50,962 bases of DNA from Bdellovibrionota bacterium (lineage in GTDB: Bacteria; Bdellovibrionota_C; UBA2361; OMII01): the NCBI GenBank assembly GCA_044356215.1, contig JBIKWQ010000014.1:1-50962 (forward strand), written 5' to 3'. The notes beneath the pieces are model-generated. The model saw nothing but the letters and a program-made list of their open reading frames with translations, was not told the DNA's origin and did not search any database. Position 1 is the stretch's first letter. Each line of letters starts with the position of its first letter. Made by a program: the position numbers and the translations under genes. This document shows positions 11,856 to 20,184 of this stretch, piece after piece.

Positions 11856-12112
11856 TAAGGAAGGCCGGCAAAACCCCTCCCTACTGCGAAAGCGGATCTT
11901 GAGCTGCTCTTCGAGTTTTCGAGATGGGAAAAAATCCTCAATGTATCACAGTGGATACATCTCCGGCCTTCGCTAAAGCTACGGCCGGCGAGGTTTTGTC
12001 GGACCAGACGTAGCCTTGGCGAAGGCTGGTGCGGTTTTTTCCCATCTCGAAAATCGAATATCAACTCAACCTCCACTTTCTCGCTACGGGTAGGTTTTGC
12101 CAGCCTTCCTTA
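11856..12112 (-). mobile_element. MITE-like family A, copy 2 (inverted), TA-flanked, carrying a 68-nt nested hairpin
   Basis: TIR TAAGGAAGGCCGGCAAAACC / GGTTTTGCCAGCCTTCCTTA; body is the reverse complement of 8369-8556 plus an insert at 11963-12030. Confidence 0.9.
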
Positions 12113-12127
12113 GGGAGCGTTGTTCTC

Positions 12128-12784
12128 ATGATTAAAAGATGGATCTCTAAAATAACTGGGAGAGCTTCAAACGTTGCCGCTAAAACGACTAGTGAGATCC
12201 CTGAGAGATTAGACGATCTACTAAGAACCCCCGGGCGCGCGTGCACCGCTACACTTCATTCAGTTGCTCAGTCTCTCTCTAAGGAGGATTTCTTAAATCT
12301 CGTTCACTGTCCTAGCTTGGTAGGGACGGCTGTTAGAGAGGGAGAGCTCGGCAAATCAAGCGCACGGATCGGCGACGCCTTAAATAATCCTACATTTCTC
12401 TTCACCGCCGCTCAGGTGGCATCTTTTGTCGATGGTGTGTCGATCGAGGAGTCTATCTTCCTTTTAAGAAAAGAAGCTAACAGGATATCAAGTCGTCCGA
12501 GCACTCATTTCGCTATCGGCAGAGCTAAGACCAACGATATCAGAATAGTTGATTTCGCCATATCGCGCTCTCACGCGCTAATTGAAAGCACGATAGATGG
12601 ATATAAGATCTCAGACTGCGACTCAAGAAACGGCACAAAGGTAAATGGTCGCACCATAAAACAGAAACCTGAGCTACTTAGCGACCGCGATACGATCACT
12701 CTCGGTCGATACGAGTTTTCGTTTTTACTACCCGAAACTCTCTATGAGAGATTGCGAGTAGGGAATCAGTCAATCTCAAAATAA
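12128..12784 (+). CDS. FHA-domain protein
   Basis: IGRAKTNDI, ISRSHA, D..SRNGTKVNG motifs; start placed at MIKRW, after the MITE. Confidence 0.9.
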   Translation: MIKRWISKITGRASNVAAKTTSEIPERLDDLLRTPGRACTATLHSVAQSLSKEDFLNLVHCPSLVGTAVREGELGKSSARIGDALNNPTFLFTAAQVASFVDGVSIEESIFLLRKEANRISSRPSTHFAIGRAKTNDIRIVDFAISRSHALIESTIDGYKISDCDSRNGTKVNGRTIKQKPELLSDRDTITLGRYEFSFLLPETLYERLRVGNQSISK

Positions 12785-12956: not shown

Positions 12957-14225
12957 TCACCCTCTCTCCGCATCCGCCGCGCGACGCAACTCTATAACAA
13001 ATGAGCTCCCTTCCCCTACAACGCTACTGACCTTGATAGCTCCATGTAATTTCTCTACCAGCTTCTTTACCGCGGCGAGCCCAACACCGGAGCCCTCAAT
13101 CTTACTCTCACCACCACGTGCGAAGGGCTTAAATATAGAACCCAGATAGTGTTCTGAGATACCTCTTCCATTATCACTTACGACTATCACAGCTCGGCGT
13201 CTTGAGGTCCCCTCAGACATTTTTATAGATACAGATAATGATCTTGATTCATCCCTGTATTTAAGGGCGTTTCCGACTAAATTACTAAAGATCTGATAGA
13301 GCTGTGTCTTGTTTCCAAATACCCAAGGAAGTTTGGCGTCTACATCGATTCGCGCTCCGGCTTGCTCGAATTGCCACGCGAAATCACCTACGACCTCACC
13401 GATTACCTCACTTAAACTAACTGGAGCGGAATCGCGCTCTGTAGTAGAGACCTGCGCTAATTCAAGCACCCCTTTAACTAGAGCCTCTAAGCGAACCACG
13501 GCTTTGTCCATATATTCAAGCGGCTCGTTAAAGTCACCCTCTACACTACTTTTCGTGGCGCTCTCTCTAACGATCTCTAACATCCCCCTTAATGTAACTA
13601 TTGGAGCCTTTAGATCATGCGACAACATGTAGGTTAATTCATTTAAGTCTCTGTTCCTCTCCTCAAGTTTTAACTGCGCGTTTACTGAGGCAGTAACATC
13701 TAAAGTTATAGAGAGCGCCACATATCCATTTAGCTCAGGATCAAAGATGGGAACTGTTCTAGTCTCTAACCAGAGACATAAACCCGAACGGTGATAAAAC
13801 CTGTAGCGCGACTGAAACGATTCACCTGTCGCCACGATCGCCAAGGCTTTCGCTATCGACGCGCGATCATCCTCATGGACATGAGATGTAAAAAATCCGC
13901 CACGCTCATTATTGTATAGCTCTGAGAGCGAATACCCCGTCAGGACCTCCGTATACGGACTGCACCAAAGAACTTTGCCATCTGGATCGTGAATCACGAC
14001 CGCTGCGGCCATATTATCAGTTAGGATCTTATAGCGAGACTCGTTCTCTAGCGCCGATTGCTTAAGGCGTCTAACGCCCTCTGTAAGACGACCAATCGGA
14101 TCTCTAGGCCCCTTATATTGAGCATCGGACCTCTCAACTAATTTTAGTAGCCGCGCTATGCCGATCGCCAGATAAACTAGCACCAAAACAAGCGTCGCTA
14201 TAAAAAACTGTGAGAGCACAGGCAT
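12957..14225 (-). CDS. Membrane-anchored PAS sensor histidine kinase
   Basis: N-terminal TM, PAS (HEDDR), H-box SHDLKAP, N-box NLVGNALKY, G-boxes DNGRGI / GSGVGLA; TGATG overlap with the HDOD gene. Confidence 0.93.
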   Translation of the reverse strand: MPVLSQFFIATLVLVLVYLAIGIARLLKLVERSDAQYKGPRDPIGRLTEGVRRLKQSALENESRYKILTDNMAAAVVIHDPDGKVLWCSPYTEVLTGYSLSELYNNERGGFFTSHVHEDDRASIAKALAIVATGESFQSRYRFYHRSGLCLWLETRTVPIFDPELNGYVALSITLDVTASVNAQLKLEERNRDLNELTYMLSHDLKAPIVTLRGMLEIVRESATKSSVEGDFNEPLEYMDKAVVRLEALVKGVLELAQVSTTERDSAPVSLSEVIGEVVGDFAWQFEQAGARIDVDAKLPWVFGNKTQLYQIFSNLVGNALKYRDESRSLSVSIKMSEGTSRRRAVIVVSDNGRGISEHYLGSIFKPFARGGESKIEGSGVGLAAVKKLVEKLHGAIKVSSVVGEGSSFVIELRRAADAERG

Positions 14226-15154
14226 CACACCTTCCCCCACGCTTCGTAGTTCTGGAATTCCGCGTTAAAATCGAGCACTACCTCTTGCATTAACTTCTTC
14301 TGATCGCGCATATGAACGCCGAAATACGACCAGGCATCTTCTAGTAGAGGTGTATGAATTCTCTGATACGCCACCATGTCACGGGTAGCGCCTAATGAAT
14401 TAGCGTGAGTAATCAGATCGCTTAACTTTACTATACTTGCGAGGCTCCCCTGCTCTTGGTCGCTCCACGGCTTATGGTGATCTCCAATAGCGTCGTAGAG
14501 ATCTCTGGAAAAGTTCCACTTCTCCGCGATCAGTTGACCAACCTGAGTGTGATCGAATGGATAGACCGCCTGCTCCGCTTTGATCGATTCAAGCCCATCA
14601 GCTAATCCTTTCTTGATCACACGCTCATAGTTCTCAACGTGTTGTTGCAGAATTAAAAGCTTACCAACATCGTGCATCAGTCCAGCTAGAAAGATCTGAT
14701 CAACAAGTGATGGAATGAGTGATCTCGCCAACGTTTTAGCGGCTATTCCCGTGGCGATGTTGTGCGCCCAGAATTCCACTCTGAGATAATGCCTCACTGG
14801 AAACAATCCCGATAACGCGGTCGCGTTCATCAGGTTTCGCAGCTCAGCGATGCCTATTACATTCACCGCGTCGACTATTGTCTTACTCCCACCACCTCGG
14901 TCATAAAAAACCGAATTCGCGATCTTTAGAACTCGCGCGGAGAGCCCTTCATCGCCCTCGAGTAGGTCAATAAAATCACGCGCCTCCGCATTTGGGTTAG
15001 TAGCTATCTTAAAAGCCTCCTGAGCAGACCCAGGCATAATTGGAACGGACTTCAATCCGAGAGAGCGGAGGATGCTTTGCCTTAAAGCATCTGCCATAAG
15101 GGTCTCAGGAGATTCTGCAGGAGGTTTCCCAAATTTAAATAGTTTTTTAAGCAT
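14225..15154 (-). CDS. HDOD-domain protein
   Basis: D..LSARVLKIANS, FWAHN, AGLMHDVGKL, DHTQVG...W and HH motifs. Confidence 0.92.
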   Translation of the reverse strand: MLKKLFKFGKPPAESPETLMADALRQSILRSLGLKSVPIMPGSAQEAFKIATNPNAEARDFIDLLEGDEGLSARVLKIANSVFYDRGGGSKTIVDAVNVIGIAELRNLMNATALSGLFPVRHYLRVEFWAHNIATGIAAKTLARSLIPSLVDQIFLAGLMHDVGKLLILQQHVENYERVIKKGLADGLESIKAEQAVYPFDHTQVGQLIAEKWNFSRDLYDAIGDHHKPWSDQEQGSLASIVKLSDLITHANSLGATRDMVAYQRIHTPLLEDAWSYFGVHMRDQKKLMQEVVLDFNAEFQNYEAWGKV

Positions 15155-15202
15155 ATCAACTTATTACTCTATGACCCTGGCGACTCAGACTACTAAGTCT
15201 AC

Positions 15203-15230
15203 GACTCGACCAGAGTGATATTTTTCTTTA
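15203..15230 (-). promoter_or_regulatory. Sigma28-like promoter upstream of the HDOD-kinase operon
   Basis: TAAAG-N15-GTCGAGTC on the minus strand. Confidence 0.45.
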
Positions 15231-15418
15231 GTTGAAAGGGGCTTAGGCGAGGTTAGGCGCCAGCATGGAATGAATAATTTCAAGCTCTTACCCCTCTTCC
15301 TAATTCCAGGGTATTTGCGATAATCTCAGACGCGCAGTAATATCTCCATGTAATTGGGTTCTAATTAACGCGGCACCTCCCAAACCGCCCTAAATTTTTA
15401 GCCGCAATAAAAACACTT

Positions 15419-16759
15419 ATGGTACCGAACTTGGAAACCCTCTCTAGCTTTCACGACACCCTGGTCCTCGTTGTAGACGATGAAGCCAGCATAAGAAGCT
15501 CCCTAAGTGGGATTTTAAAGGATGAGGGAATATCTGTTATTGAAGCCGCCGATGGGGAGAGCGCGATATCGATGTTAATCGAACGCAATCCAGCACTTGT
15601 ACTACTCGATATCTGGATGCCCGGAATCGACGGATTAGAGACCCTCAAGAAGATAAAAGAGATTAGACCAAACACCCCAGTTGTAATGATTAGTGGTCAC
15701 GCTACCATCTCAACAGCGGTGGCCGCGACCAGACTTGGAGCATCCGACTTCTTAGAGAAGCCTCTAGGTCTTACATCAACGATCGAGGTGGTCCGACGCG
15801 CTCTAGAGATCGCTAAGGAACGCCAGGAGTCAACCGGACCAACATGGGAGAAGATCGAGCCCTCCTCTGTAGGTCCACTACGTCAATCACTCAACTTAAA
15901 ACCGATTGTTTTCGCCAATCAAGTAGCTCGCGGCGCGGCAAGACCTCAAAAGACTATCGCTCACGCGGCGATCCTTTACGGACAGGGATTGCACTCTGGT
16001 AGGAAGAGTGGACTGATACTAGAGCCCCTACCCGCCAACTCAGGAATTCACTTCGTTGGAGTATCAGAGACCACCACAGTACCAGCTCACGTTGATTTCG
16101 TTGAATCAACGGGATTTGCCACAACCGTCCGCTTAGGACACACACAAGCGGGAACAATCGAGCACCTGATGTCGGCACTGTGTGCCTACGGAATCTCAAA
16201 CCTTCTAATTAAATGTAACGGCGAAGTTCCAGTGATGGATGGATCGGCGAACGAGTTCTGTAAGCTTTTTGAACAGGTCGGACTAACAGAGCAGGATGGT
16301 GAGTGGTACGAAATAGCGATTAACGAGACTATTCAAGTTGGTAATGAGAAGGAATGGATCCGCATCGAGCCAGCCGATAGTTTTTCTGTTGATTATACCC
16401 TTAGGTATCCAGCTCCTGTCGGTGAGCAGCACTTTACATTTACTTTCAGCGACCCCGCGTCATTCCGCGCTGAGATCGCCCCATCGAGAACCTTTAGTTT
16501 TGTAAAAGATGTAGGCTATCTTCAGAAGCAGGGGCTAGCTTTAGGTGGCAGGTTCGATAATTTTTTACTGATCGGCACTGAAGGCGCGATTAACGACGCG
16601 TGGCGTTTTCCAAACGAGCCGGTGCGCCACAAGATCCTTGATGCTATTGGTGACCTCTATCTTTTAGGGAGACCGCTAAGAGGAAAAGTCACCGCATGCA
16701 TGACCGGCCACTCTGATAATATCGCGCTGCTTAAGAAAGTTAGAGAGTTGTTGGGGTGA
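15419..16759 (+). CDS. lpxC: Receiver domain-LpxC fusion (UDP-3-O-acyl-GlcNAc deacetylase)
   Basis: REC: VVDD, LDIWMPG, ISGH, EKP. LpxC: QKTI, G.GLHSG, TIEHLMSAL, PVMDGSA, IAPSRTF, HKILDAIGDL. Confidence 0.93.
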   Translation: MVPNLETLSSFHDTLVLVVDDEASIRSSLSGILKDEGISVIEAADGESAISMLIERNPALVLLDIWMPGIDGLETLKKIKEIRPNTPVVMISGHATISTAVAATRLGASDFLEKPLGLTSTIEVVRRALEIAKERQESTGPTWEKIEPSSVGPLRQSLNLKPIVFANQVARGAARPQKTIAHAAILYGQGLHSGRKSGLILEPLPANSGIHFVGVSETTTVPAHVDFVESTGFATTVRLGHTQAGTIEHLMSALCAYGISNLLIKCNGEVPVMDGSANEFCKLFEQVGLTEQDGEWYEIAINETIQVGNEKEWIRIEPADSFSVDYTLRYPAPVGEQHFTFTFSDPASFRAEIAPSRTFSFVKDVGYLQKQGLALGGRFDNFLLIGTEGAINDAWRFPNEPVRHKILDAIGDLYLLGRPLRGKVTACMTGHSDNIALLKKVRELLG

Positions 16760-16840
16760 TGGTGGGATTATCTGTAACTAGGGGTTACTTTCAACAGCGG
16801 TCAATCCCTGAATAGGCTTTACATGTAGTGGCCGCGCACG

Positions 16841-16931
16841 TAAACGTCGGTCGTGCTCCTGCTCGTGCACGAAAACGCGAAACGTTCACGTCGACGTTAC
16901 ACGGTGCCGTGCACGAGCAGGTGTACGTTTA
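16841..16931 (+). repeat. Family C palindromic repeat, copy 2
   Basis: CCTGCTCGTGCAC...GTGCACGAGCAGG stem, closed by TAAACGT / ACGTTTA. Confidence 0.85.
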
Positions 16932-16968
16932 CCCCCTTTCCGCCAAACACTACACCAGCCAGCCCAAA

Positions 16969-17050
16969 TTTAACGATTTTACACCGTAAATTCGTTAAAA
17001 CTATTTTTAATTTGCATTTTTTAACGAATTTTAGGATTATAATCGTTAAA
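16969..17050 (+). promoter_or_regulatory. Twin palindromic operators TTTAACGA-N15-TCGTTAAA overlapping the fic promoter
   Basis: Copies at 16969-16999 and 17020-17050; TTGCAT at 17012 and TATAAT at 17038. Confidence 0.8.
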
Positions 17051-17063
17051 CCCAAGGGACGAG

Positions 17064-17936
17064 ATGACAAACTCAGCGAAACGGATCTCCCAGATTATAG
17101 CCCTACGCAAAAGGTTCTTCGCCTCCAAGGTTGGGAAGGATCAGCTCCTTTCTATGATCGACCAGGCTGAGGTCAGTGAACACGTATACAACTCAAACGC
17201 TATCGAGAACAGCACCCTGTCTTTAGAAGAGACGGCGAAAATATTGCAACAGATTGACCTCGACCGCTTCATTTCGGAACGAGAGATATTTGAGGCGAAG
17301 AATCTGGCTCGGGTCGTTCAATACATCTCTAGCAAGGCGCCTGAGCATCAACTAGACCGTGAGATTATCCTTCTTTTACACAAGATGCTTATCTCAAATA
17401 TTCGAGATGAAGTCGCCGGACGATTTCGCGCACTTAACGAGTGGGTGCGAGTAGGGAATCATATTGGGAGCGCCCCCGCTGATATTGAAGCAGGAATTAC
17501 GGCTTTATTAACTACGTATCATGGTGACTCTAGCGAGCCGATCACGAGTCGCCTCGCTCGTTTTCATCTGGAGTTTGAATCAATCCATCCATTCGTTGAT
17601 GGCAACGGAAGAATCGGCCGCGTACTCGTCAATTACCTCCTTATAAGAGAAGGATATGTACCGATTAACATCGCTTTTGTGGATCGTTCCCGATATTACG
17701 ATGCGTTCAGTGAGTATCATAGACAACAGCGTATCAAGACTATGGAGGAGATAATTTTTCGCGCTCTCACTAATAGCTACCACAAGCGGCTAGCGTATTT
17801 GGAGGGACGCGAGATCATTACTCTGAATGCGTACGCCAAAAAACATAAACTCTCGCATGCGAATCTAATAAATAAAGCCAAACGACAAACTATCGAGGCT
17901 TTTGTTGAGCAGGGGGTTTGGAGGATTGGGGATTAA
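17064..17936 (+). CDS. Fic-family protein with inhibitory helix and small C-terminal putative DNA-binding domain
   Basis: HPFVDGNGRIGR; SNAIEN inhibitory motif; C-terminal ITLNAYAK...NLINKAKRQTI...GVWRI. Confidence 0.93.
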   Translation: MTNSAKRISQIIALRKRFFASKVGKDQLLSMIDQAEVSEHVYNSNAIENSTLSLEETAKILQQIDLDRFISEREIFEAKNLARVVQYISSKAPEHQLDREIILLLHKMLISNIRDEVAGRFRALNEWVRVGNHIGSAPADIEAGITALLTTYHGDSSEPITSRLARFHLEFESIHPFVDGNGRIGRVLVNYLLIREGYVPINIAFVDRSRYYDAFSEYHRQQRIKTMEEIIFRALTNSYHKRLAYLEGREIITLNAYAKKHKLSHANLINKAKRQTIEAFVEQGVWRIGD

Positions 17937-17946
17937 TCCCCGCCCC

Positions 17947-18723
17947 TCACACCACCCTATCCGCCCCACACCCCAGAAACGTCACAGCTTCATGCACAAC
18001 TGCTGTAATCTCCGGCCCCCAGGTACGTGGGTCGTTACGCATCGATGCGATATTCTCTAGCACCAACGATGTCGCGTAAGTCTTTCTAGTCGAGAGTGAC
18101 TCAATACTCACAGTCGATGTCCTCTGATCAAACGAGAATACCGCCGTGTCTAATTTGGCTTGGTTAGCTTGAAGAACGAATGCGTGGCTTAGCGGATCAC
18201 GAATCGATGACACTAACGCTAAAGTTGGCTCTGCGCGTTTAATAAAGCGTTCACTCGCTATCGCTACTCGGGTATAGGTGATAAAGAACGCCCTGAGATC
18301 GGATTCTTCTGACTGCGATAGAGCGCCGATATCACGGCCTTCAAAACGGGCTAGCAGCTCTGTTTTGCATGCGCTCCATAAATTAACACCTCTAAACTCA
18401 ATTCGCGCTAAATCCTCTCTTGGAACTCCTAGGATCCAGCGACTGGCAGTCCTAACATCATCTGGCGTGATCTCACGTGATACGCCACGAGCGGTTAACC
18501 CGCTCCAAGAAATTAACTGCTCTTGTTCACTGATACATCGCGAACATAGAAACGGGCCGCGCTCCTCGCCAACTAATCGGTCGCGACCACAGACTGGGAC
18601 CGCTCCATCGCATAACATCTGGCTAACTTCCGCGCCGTTCTTGGCTAAATAGTTGGCCACTAGATAAAGCAAGCTAGCTTCCTTATGCCCTTCTCCGTAA
18701 GGGGCGTAAACAACTACTTTCAT
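17947..18723 (-). CDS. Hypothetical protein with a Cys cluster (CxxxxxxC...CxxC)
   Basis: Long ORF, third of three overlapping or adjacent co-oriented genes; start placed at MKVVVY. Confidence 0.7.
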   Translation of the reverse strand: MKVVVYAPYGEGHKEASLLYLVANYLAKNGAEVSQMLCDGAVPVCGRDRLVGEERGPFLCSRCISEQEQLISWSGLTARGVSREITPDDVRTASRWILGVPREDLARIEFRGVNLWSACKTELLARFEGRDIGALSQSEESDLRAFFITYTRVAIASERFIKRAEPTLALVSSIRDPLSHAFVLQANQAKLDTAVFSFDQRTSTVSIESLSTRKTYATSLVLENIASMRNDPRTWGPEITAVVHEAVTFLGCGADRVV

Positions 18724-19484
18724 AATGCGCACACCGAAACAGGTCTCTTAGAAACTCGATCTCGTGAGAGGATGTAACACTCAACCTTACTATCTCTGTT
18801 TGGGATTACACCCCAAAACTTCTCCACTACCGCACGCCCCCATAATGTCTCATGAGATTGAGCGCCTTTGCAGAGGCTCTCATCAAGCGCGAATTCGACC
18901 GCCGACTCAGGAGCAACTGTGCCGATATGTAGCGGTGATTCCGCTCCTCTAAGAATATGTCTCAGATCAGGGCGGATTAACTCAGATGTAGAGTTCACTA
19001 TCACAAGCGATGGCACAACAGATTCATCCTCCACCGCTATCCATGACACGATCCCGTTTGACGGTGATACCTCTAAAGTTGGCTCCTCTTCGCTTTTTTC
19101 AGCGTTAACCTTAAACGGTGCCGCGCCGTAAGAGAGCGAAAATTCCGGCGACACCATCTCAATTACAACCCTTGAGTTGCGGAGATCAAGCCTACCCTGA
19201 GGACACTCCAGAGCGACTTCAATGCCGTACATCCCAGAGCCTTCGTTAGCTAAAGATGGAAACGCATCTTCTAACCTTATTCCATCAGGCTGATTTAGAC
19301 GGCCCCCTTCAAGTAGAACCGACCTACGCTCGATGCCTTTGCCAAAGAGGGTCAGATGACACGAAACAGGATAGTGACCAGCGGTGGTTCCTGCGGTTGG
19401 AAAGAAATGCACGCGCGAGCGAATCGCGCTGGTCATTACACAGAACGCCCGGGTTGAGACTGAGTTAGCGATAATTCGATCCAT
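18720..19484 (-). CDS. Hypothetical protein (beta-rich)
   Basis: Long ORF in operon; start uncertain (19484 or 19436). Confidence 0.7.
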   Translation of the reverse strand: MDRIIANSVSTRAFCVMTSAIRSRVHFFPTAGTTAGHYPVSCHLTLFGKGIERRSVLLEGGRLNQPDGIRLEDAFPSLANEGSGMYGIEVALECPQGRLDLRNSRVVIEMVSPEFSLSYGAAPFKVNAEKSEEEPTLEVSPSNGIVSWIAVEDESVVPSLVIVNSTSELIRPDLRHILRGAESPLHIGTVAPESAVEFALDESLCKGAQSHETLWGRAVVEKFWGVIPNRDSKVECYILSRDRVSKRPVSVCAL

Positions 19485-19494
19485 CACTACACCA

Positions 19495-20184
19495 TCACCA
19501 CGCGCAGACATTACGATACAAGATATTACCCTCTGTCTCACCCGGCAATTTTTCGATCATCTGACATACGATCGAAGACTGAGCTCTTGGAGAGATACGA
19601 AGATACCCTTGCGAGATGCCCTTCTGCCAGGACAGGTCATCAAAGGTCGACAACAACTCGTGCTCTAGCGACACAACCCGACAGCCGTAAGGTGGGATCT
19701 GGGTAGTCCACTCAGGTGACCTAGATCCGTAGAGGAGCCGTGTCACGACCTGGCAAACCTCTTCACCTGTATTGAGTAGCACTATTAAGTGCTCCCTCTT
19801 TGCTCCCAGCAAAAGCGGCATAAAAGCCATCTCTCTGTTCTTGATGACTTTTGGCTCAGAGAGAAGATCGACCTGTTTACCCAACTGTAATCTGCAGATC
19901 TGTCGTGTGTTGGCAGGGGTTGTAACAACTAGGTGACCCTGAGTAATACCTCCCTGAGTTTTGAGTCCAGCCATAAAAGGCTCAATCTCAACAATACCCA
20001 CCTCATTCGCTGGGAACTGCACATTAAAGCTCTGCGTCTTTGCGCCATCAACATCAAACAGCTCACAAGCCCCCTCTAGGGCCGCCCCTGAGCTATCCGC
20101 AGTCGCCGAAGAAATTAAAAGGGTCGATGAGAAGAGTGGCGGACCAGCGATCCAAAAATGATTTTTAACTGCGGTGTCAGTCAT
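19495..20184 (-). CDS. Hypothetical protein (beta-rich)
   Basis: 229-aa ORF heading the three-gene operon. Confidence 0.75.
   Translation of the reverse strand: MTDTAVKNHFWIAGPPLFSSTLLISSATADSSGAALEGACELFDVDGAKTQSFNVQFPANEVGIVEIEPFMAGLKTQGGITQGHLVVTTPANTRQICRLQLGKQVDLLSEPKVIKNREMAFMPLLLGAKREHLIVLLNTGEEVCQVVTRLLYGSRSPEWTTQIPPYGCRVVSLEHELLSTFDDLSWQKGISQGYLRISPRAQSSIVCQMIEKLPGETEGNILYRNVCAW

Follow-up and report, generated by a model that had tools for sequence, protein, structure and literature searches.

LpxC is the deacetylase that commits the cell to lipid A and sets the flux, and its control outside the Enterobacteria is an open question for students of the bacterial envelope. The DNA considered here, called the window throughout, is positions 1 to 50,962 of contig JBIKWQ010000014.1, and in it a single gene (15419..16759, + strand) encodes a receiver domain (REC) of the two-component type joined in frame to LpxC. 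By sequence comparison the receiver derives from that of the response regulator NtrX, the fusion is the sole LpxC of its genome, and an NtrY-type kinase is encoded elsewhere in that genome with no NtrX beside it. On balance we think it probable that these three belong together, and that the fused LpxC is controlled by NtrY after translation. What is new is the tracing of the receiver to NtrX, a matter of homology; known kinds of system stand behind the fusion, namely enzyme-output response regulators and NtrYX envelope signalling.

A receiver and a deacetylase in one frame

The gene is a single open reading frame (ORF) of 446 amino acids with an ATG start. Scans with Pfam place the receiver at residues 16-123 (15464..15787, +; PF00072 Response_reg, 103.8 bits against a cut-off of 30.2) and the LpxC deacetylase domain at residues 177-441 (15947..16741, +; PF03331, 275.5 bits against 27). 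The in-frame fusion noticed in the sequence-only reading is thus borne out, with both domains above cut-off, though the linker, given there as about 45 amino acids, measures 53 between the Pfam borders (residues 124-176; 15788..15946, +). With NCBIfam, the lpxC equivalog TIGR00325 gives 231.4 bits (cut-off 187.25), and the best receiver family is NtrX, NF051870, which matches the REC part only with 129.3 bits (cut-off 600). Neither AAA+ nor helix-turn-helix (HTH) parts were found in the fusion, REC and LpxC being its sole Pfam domains. On these scores the protein can be assigned both to the LpxC family and to the receiver family, and it can be placed outside NtrX as NCBIfam defines NtrX, being without AAA+ and HTH and far below the cut-off.

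The receiver has D20, D21, D64 (in LLDIWMPG), S92 and K114 as its key residues, and the LpxC part E248, H249, T358, H404, K405, D408, D412 and H431. Across a family alignment of 46 sequences, which reaches down to 31% identity overall, D21, S92, K114, E248, H249, H404, K405, D408, D412 and H431 are invariant, and D20, D64 and T358 are conserved in at least 90%. The predicted phospho-acceptor aspartate D64 is encoded at 15608..15610, E248-H249 at 16160..16165, H404-K405-I-L-D408 at 16628..16642 and H431 at 16709..16711, all on the + strand; the protein ends 15 residues after H431, without a long C-terminal tail. The residues picked out in the sequence-only reading (DD, the D of LDIWMPG, S and K in the receiver, EH and HKILD as zinc ligands) are all present and highly conserved. 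For comparison, we take the catalytic and zinc set of E. coli LpxC to be E78, H79, T191, H238, K239, D242, D246 and H265, so that E248-H249 presumably corresponds to E78/H79 (general base and zinc ligand), H404/D408 to H238/D242 (the zinc ligands H and D), and H431 to H265.

An AlphaFold2 model on the family alignment has a mean predicted local distance difference test score (pLDDT) of 89.6 and a predicted template modelling score (pTM) of 0.81, and pLDDT falls below 50 only at residues 1-4 and 141-153. In it the helix alpha-5 of the receiver runs on to residue 137, and the stretch 161-176 is ordered and contains a strand (171-174) just before the first strand of LpxC. Searched with Foldseek against the PDB, the LpxC part resembles the solved E. 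coli, P. aeruginosa and A. aeolicus enzymes with target template modelling (TM) scores of 0.84-0.96 and root-mean-square deviations of 1.3-2.1. Such a pTM, together with so short a disordered linker stretch, is compatible with a fixed packing of REC on LpxC, and the ordered 161-176 segment would suit a definite contact inside the molecule, open to change by phosphorylation. The linker varies among orthologues in length as well as sequence. The idea that it might be a remnant of an HTH domain was rejected at the sensitivity of BLASTP, which aligns the fusion with a REC-HTH_8-LpxC protein (P0144) over 16-130 and 170-442 only.

Is this the only LpxC that the cell has? The host genome (3.24 Mb in 131 contigs, 96.5% complete; a freshwater bacterium) has one PF03331 match, and it is the REC-LpxC gene, which answers the question raised from the window alone of whether another lpxC exists. 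LpxA, LpxB and FtsH were also found, and a sole LpxC in a genome with LpxA and LpxB lends indirect support to the fusion being a working UDP-3-O-acyl-GlcNAc deacetylase.

The fusion was present in all of the 40 relatives first examined. A draw of genomes from the class and one from the phylum give the same 124, so that there is one class in the phylum; close relatives go by various labels in public records, as Bdellovibrionota, Pseudomonadota or 'delta proteobacterium' metagenome-assembled genomes. LpxC was found in 119 of the 124, one to a genome if fragments at contig ends and a second match of 41.8 bits in G059 are set aside. A single uninterrupted match extends over both domains in 106 (a count from the match table); of the remaining 13 LpxC-positive genomes, G027 and G053 have both parts, or the LpxC part, in a long open frame, and the others are cut at contig ends. 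Two genomes of family f22 (G041 and G042; 1.2-1.8 Mb) have a very divergent REC-LpxC of 31-37% identity, 412 amino acids long in G041, and the divergent locus L113:5404-6642 keeps the key residues of both receiver and LpxC.

An NtrX-type receiver and an NtrY left alone

Compared with the receivers of NtrX-like regulators in out-groups, the fused REC shows 51-60% identity. Those regulators, with the order REC-AAA+-HTH, are of about 455 amino acids, and their best NCBIfam family is NtrX, at 470-513 bits and so below its cut-off of 600. Three such NtrX-like receivers, searched against the host genome, all match the fused REC best, with 135-143 bits against at most 85 for the next. Going by these comparisons, the fused receiver descends from that of NtrX.

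In the out-groups (Desulfuromonadales, Syntrophobacterales, Desulfobacterales, Methylomirabilota and others) a stand-alone lpxC is often near the NtrX-like gene. A scripted count over loci fetched from named genomes put it 2.46-4.6 kb upstream on the same strand in 43 of 71, a share that is biased upward, since patterns from each half of the query had served to pick the loci; 12 of the 71 were too short to tell. Three of the clusters were annotated, and in each lpxC is followed by a kinase of about 750 amino acids of the NtrY type and that by the NtrX-like regulator of about 455. The kinases have HAMP, PAS, HisKA and HATPase_c, an NtrY_N match was present in one of the two that were scanned against Pfam, and in one of the three clusters a DUF4390 gene precedes the kinase.

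Forms intermediate between separate genes and the short fusion came to light when 1.84 billion representatives were searched and the matches scanned with Pfam. There is a long form, REC-Sigma54_activat-AAA_lid_14-(HTH_8)-LpxC, of 650-736 amino acids, several members of which have weak or partial AAA+ matches; a middle form, REC-HTH_8-LpxC, of 491-505; and the short form, REC-LpxC, of 419-456. A long-form cluster of the ESM Atlas has 381 members, all with Sigma54_activat, AAA_lid_14 and LpxC, and Nitrospinota is its commonest phylum; the short architecture was seen in 17 ESM Atlas matches, with Binatota and Myxococcota commonest in the three clusters shown. In five metagenome loci the long form stands directly behind a 744-amino-acid kinase of the NtrY type, with gaps of 10 to approximately 250 bp, and in a sixth just the C-terminal end of a kinase comes right before it. 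These metagenome kinases are 52-53% identical to the kinase of Pelovirga, and a DUF4390-like ORF is upstream in four of the long-form loci. In one metagenome contig (L118:2602-4805) two overlapping ORFs of 267 and 493 amino acids make up the long REC-AAA+-LpxC gene, a split that suggests a frameshift or an assembly error.

In a quick maximum likelihood tree of 83 LpxC domains, which has only Shimodaira-Hasegawa-like approximate likelihood-ratio (SH-aLRT) support, a midpoint root and the top hits of one query to draw on, a branch with support of 96 separates all 45 fused LpxC domains, together with two short 'stand-alone' ones, from 31 stand-alone LpxC and five LpxC-FabZ. The short and REC-HTH forms nest among the long ones, and of the 13 sequences from the phylum, 12 group in a single clade with support of 98 and the divergent L113 falls elsewhere. 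The fusion family, as judged from this tree, most likely arose once. The two of stand-alone length inside the fused clade, P0195 (290 amino acids) and P0213 (283), may have lost the receiver secondarily or may be gene calls that are cut short. The tail after the LpxC domain is no longer than 10 amino acids in all 45 fused forms, with none at all after the domain envelope in the fusion of the window, and is at least 18 in 20 of 33 stand-alone forms. LpxC-FabZ fusions among the matches were P0208, P0221 and P0225.

What became of the kinase? On another contig of the host genome, at G000:C98:32655-34868, is a gene for an NtrY-type kinase of 737 amino acids, the one clear orthologue there of the out-group kinase (352 bits against 99 for the next), and having NtrY_N, HAMP, PAS, HisKA and HATPase_c. 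Upstream of it are ruvA, ruvB and an ORF of 191 amino acids whose DUF4390 match, of 24 bits, stays below the cut-off of 27, and downstream is a gene for fructose-bisphosphatase (FBPase), not ntrX. Orthologues of this NtrY were found in 113 of the 124 genomes (E <= 1e-50), and in none of 24 loci inspected, 20 from other genera or families and four from the window's genus, is there an NtrX-like regulator within about 3.5 kb of ntrY. NtrY is an orphan kinase across the phylum. As the one NtrX-type receiver recognisable by homology is that fused to LpxC, the orphan NtrY is most likely its partner.

The match between NtrY and LpxC across genomes has exceptions. G087 and G043 are NtrY-positive with no LpxC detected. 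NtrY orthologues have an in-frame TAG in G030 and an in-frame TAA in G061, and in G030 the orthologue of another kinase, the PAS kinase described below, also has a TAG. Genome G090 (one contig of 2.3 Mb, 82% complete, of the same order as the host) gave no LpxC candidates and no NtrY at E <= 1e-50; it keeps LpxA and LpxB, and its PAS-kinase orthologue is split by an in-frame TGA. Either its assembly is incomplete or it represents a lineage with an unusual lipid A pathway. An argument from co-loss of LpxC and NtrY was tried and abandoned, for G090 is without both and yet has LpxA and LpxB, which leaves no clean support of the phylogenetic-profile kind.

The history that we propose would begin with a whole NtrX (REC, sigma-54 AAA+ module and HTH), encoded behind DUF4390 and ntrY, becoming joined to LpxC, a state that survives in contigs of the Nitrospinota type. 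The AAA+ and HTH parts would then have been lost repeatedly, leaving REC, linker and LpxC in the phylum labelled Bdellovibrionota, and the fusion gene would have left ntrY, coming to lie behind purA in most families and beside an HDOD-PAS kinase pair in that of the window, while ntrY and its DUF4390-like upstream gene would have persisted as an orphan without ntrX. In present-day cells NtrY would phosphorylate or dephosphorylate D64 of the fused receiver, and the state of the receiver would change the output of LpxC after translation, in the likeliest mode through a shift in the packing of REC and of the ordered stretch before LpxC against the deacetylase, as other response regulators with enzymatic outputs work, with a change in LpxC stability as the alternative mode. 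Such direct phospho-control would take the place both of the transcriptional link from NtrYX to lpxC in alphaproteobacteria and of FtsH/LapB proteolysis in E. coli, an ancestral envelope circuit acting on lpxC expression having been shortened by fusing the regulator to the enzyme. Phosphotransfer from NtrY to REC, and the sign and mode of any effect on LpxC, are inferred; that the effect might be inhibitory is a guess by analogy, from NtrYX lowering lpxC expression elsewhere.

Several points weigh against this account, beside the upward bias of the out-group count and the quick nature of the tree. Of the 71 out-group loci, 16 lack an lpxC over at least the 4.2 kb that precede the NtrX-like gene. 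In the phylum ntrY and REC-lpxC are unlinked, and the case for pairing them is made from ancestry and from the orphan state of each. Eight LpxC-positive genomes have no NtrY at E <= 1e-50 (G076, G085, G041, G042, G049, G056, G065 and G072); of these, G041, G049 and G065 have full-length fusions in genomes that are 80-92% complete. In the window's family a second orphan kinase, the PAS kinase, is right beside the fusion gene. Finally, upstream of lpxC in R. sphaeroides there is no NtrX site, which makes the link between NtrYX and lpxC in that organism an indirect one (PMC7240162).

Other possible roles and kinases

The receiver may set the abundance or the location of LpxC instead of its activity, for instance by a phospho-dependent degron or adaptor site, with FtsH, Lon or ClpXP as the protease, or by a sequestering dimerisation. 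Receiver domains do act in regulated proteolysis, RssB and CpdR being examples, and FtsH was found in the host genome. The tail-less state of all 45 fused forms would call for some other handle for turnover, and because of it stability control is a live alternative. In E. coli LpxC is controlled by proteolysis, according to a review (PMC12444477). The contrast with FtsH/LapB control in E. coli that the sequence-only reading drew holds in part: a C-terminal degron tail is missing, the end being 15 residues past H431, and the zinc ribbon of the LapB type (PF18073) had no match in the 96.5%-complete genome, on a model of 28 positions that is unspecific, giving matches also in control genomes that have no lipopolysaccharide (LPS), and with no full-length LapB search; FtsH is there. 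Against a role in abundance or location, the pTM of 0.81 and the order in the stretch before LpxC agree no less well with a contact inside the molecule. We regard it as unlikely, though as a serious contender.

The PAS kinase encoded next to the fusion, with the HDOD protein, may be the cognate kinase, either as sole input in the window's family or as a second one beside NtrY. The HDOD-domain protein gene is at 14225..15154 (-; Pfam HDOD, 153 bits), the PAS-HisKA-HATPase_c kinase gene at 12957..14240 (-; Pfam), and the intergenic region from which the HDOD gene and REC-lpxC diverge, taken from the ORF listing, at 15155..15418. The arrangement was described correctly from the window alone: the fusion is on the + strand and both of the others are on the - strand, and a receiver gene next to the kinase was not detected in the window. 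The proposal built on it, that the HDOD and PAS kinase operon supplies the signal, fares less well, and we judge this kinase the less likely partner. On its side are the seven same-genus loci, in all of which HDOD adjoins REC-lpxC divergently, with the PAS kinase seen in the five that are long enough to reach it, and one contig of a sister genus (G100), on which the kinase is about 3 kb from REC-lpxC. Outside that neighbourhood the association vanishes. In 22 of 22 loci from other lineages, where the fusion is intact, neither HDOD nor PAS kinase is next to it; the usual order there, all on one strand, is rbfA, a DHH-family gene, truB, purA and REC-lpxC, with purA directly upstream of the fusion in 15 of the 22. 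No histidine-kinase family was recognised (E <= 1e-5) among 150 of the 159 neighbour ORFs of those loci, the nine shortest having been dropped.

The PAS kinase has an existence of its own. Orthologues are present in 94 of the 124 genomes, and beyond the window's family they are either on a different contig from the fusion or 50-900 kb away from it. In all 12 loci inspected in other families the HDOD gene precedes the kinase, so the two form an independent conserved two-gene module. In four of those 12 the kinase is followed by a single-domain receiver of 129-151 amino acids (PF00072, 39-50 bits), at L221:3531-3938, L223:3474-3926, L231:3607-3993 and L232:3516-3920, all on the - strand. An orthologue of this small receiver was not detected in the host genome (tblastn, E <= 1e-6), and therefore the PAS kinase is an orphan here, which favours its having turned to the fused receiver. 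However, its own receiver in those four loci speaks against it, the NtrX type of the fused REC and the position of the long-form relatives directly behind NtrY point to the orphan NtrY-type kinase, and on the evidence as a whole we find a cognate role for the PAS kinase distinctly improbable. A combined version, in which two orphan kinases converge on the fused receiver, NtrY as the ancestral one and the PAS kinase, its own receiver lost, rewired after the gene moved, is to us more doubtful still.

Other features of these neighbourhoods may be recorded here. PAS kinase orthologues have an in-frame TAG in G003, G082, G030 and G035 and an in-frame TAA in G105 and G120. An FHA-domain protein gene (12029..12784, +; PF00498, 60.4 bits), with a long N-terminal part that has no family match, converges on the PAS kinase gene. 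Directly downstream of REC-lpxC is a Fic/DOC-family gene (17064..17936, +; PF02661, 72.6 bits) with no homologue in the compared loci of relatives, and beyond it 17947..20184 (-) has three consecutive ORFs of 261, 273 and 229 amino acids, the first two without a Pfam match at E <= 0.01; a homologue of that of 261, 60% identical, is present in one locus of the same genus (L004). In two deep-branching families envelope genes come after REC-lpxC: at L111:8280-11708 a Mur ligase gene, murB and an ftsQ-like gene, and at L112:8927-9925 a lipid A acyltransferase gene (PF03279).

Could the receiver have outlived its purpose, as a structural leftover of the NtrX fusion that works independently of phosphorylation? 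The decay or loss of AAA+ and HTH in the fusion family, and the lack of any kinase linked to the gene in most of the phylum's families, are what one would expect of such a relic. A relic would hardly be expected to keep D20, D21, D64, S92 and K114 invariant or at least 90% conserved in 46 sequences down to 31% identity, or to keep the receiver residues even in the most divergent lineage (L113), and orphan NtrY has been retained in 113 of the 124 genomes. We hold it to be very improbable.

There is finally the matter of whether the gene is real as drawn. Contigs from two other public lake-water runs, one of 3,096 nucleotides spanning 15300-15991 and one of 285 nucleotides spanning 15781-16065, bridge the REC/LpxC junction without indels or joints, which goes towards the check by junction-spanning reads that had been called for earlier. 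A free LpxC could come from a start inside the gene, which the sequence-only reading had named as a way for its proposal to fail. The fusion protein has no methionine between residues 90 and 251, and none of ATG, GTG and TTG is in frame in the 35 codons preceding Q177, where the LpxC domain starts. Among 28 orthologues, 10 have an ATG in the pre-LpxC stretch, and two have a start codon with a Shine-Dalgarno-like motif there, at positions that are not conserved; no internal start is conserved. Given these bridging contigs and the lack of a conserved internal start, together with the same frame in 106 of 124 independently assembled genomes, an assembly chimera or a pair of genes with an internal start is rejected, its chance being next to nil. 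A consensus scan of 15100-17100, which is weak evidence, found no sigma-70-like site on the + strand before or inside the fusion gene; it gave one weak terminator-like hairpin on the - strand and as a whole is uninformative. Two metatranscriptome contigs of 151 nucleotides, at 15373-15523 and 15691-15841, do not suffice to demonstrate transcription, the start of a transcript or a start within the gene.

As the fusion is real, its residues are intact, it is the sole lpxC and no internal start is conserved, direct two-component input to LpxC is a fair inference. To this extent the earlier proposal of two-component control stands; its choice of the PAS kinase as partner is not supported in the form given.

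Relation to known systems

How would direct phospho-control of LpxC sit among the controls already described? A 2025 review of the regulation of lipid A lists proteolysis, protein partners and transcription as controls of LpxC, and in its accessible text the words 'receiver', 'fusion', 'fused' and 'response regulator' do not occur (PMC12444477). In the literature searched, which leaves out most subscription journals and supplements, no paper was found that describes a REC-LpxC or NtrX-LpxC fusion. If the account given here is right, direct phospho-control would be a fourth mode of LpxC control. The receiver is on the sole LpxC of a whole phylum, and related fusions are in clusters of Nitrospinota, Binatota and Myxococcota. 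The graded series from separate genes to whole-regulator fusion to receiver-only fusion would record how a transcriptional circuit was shortened into a post-translational one, and would support NtrY/NtrX being at heart an envelope system. To this the window adds an uncoupled case, in which kinase and fused regulator are no longer neighbours and, in one family, the latter is next to a second orphan kinase module.

The nearest known system is NtrY/NtrX itself, of alphaproteobacteria and, as PlrS/PlrR with the DUF4390 protein PlrP, of Bordetella. In R. sphaeroides NtrYX lowers the lpxC transcript, which is 8.8-fold up in the mutant along with more LPS (PMC7240162), and it lowers that transcript in C. 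crescentus too, according to the review (PMC12444477). DUF4390/PlrP has been proposed (PMC13001219) as a periplasmic third component of NtrYX-family systems. The likeness to the fusion lies in the NtrX-type receiver, in the host's retention of an NtrY_N-HAMP-PAS-HisKA-HATPase_c kinase behind a DUF4390-like ORF, and in a system that is already tied to lpxC and the envelope (PMC7240162, PMC12444477). The fusion differs in having no AAA+ and no DNA-binding domain, the enzyme itself being the output, and in that its gene is not beside ntrY; the known link of NtrYX to lpxC is transcriptional and in R. sphaeroides indirect. The longer NtrX-LpxC fusions (REC-AAA+-LpxC behind ntrY) share with the protein of the window the type of REC, the LpxC clade and the lack of a C-terminal tail, and differ from it in that it is without AAA+ and HTH and is outside the ntrY operon.

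D. vulgaris DVU2931-DVU2934 is comparable in another way. There, lpxC is the single mapped target of the response regulator DVU2934 (PMC3333781). A response regulator dedicated to lpxC is the common feature, and in the annotated out-group clusters lpxC is beside an NtrX-like operon of the sigma-54 type; the difference is that control in D. vulgaris is transcriptional and exerted by a separate protein, and the two are likened by target and not by orthology of DVU2934.

Response regulators whose output is an enzyme are well known in CheB (REC-methylesterase), PleD and WspR (REC-GGDEF) and RpfG (REC-HD-GYP). They share with the fusion the order of receiver, linker and catalytic domain and serve as a model for phospho-gating; their output domains are not homologous to LpxC, and their outputs are signalling enzymes, whereas that of the fusion is a biosynthetic enzyme of lipid A, an essential pathway. 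The stand-alone LpxC of E. coli, P. aeruginosa and A. aeolicus are alike in fold and catalytic residues, from which the fusion is set apart by its N-terminal receiver and by having no long C-terminal tail. LpxC-FabZ, of Bacteroidota and others, is another natural fusion of LpxC; in it, however, the partner is an enzyme of the pathway joined at the C-terminus, and it is on the opposite side of the tree.

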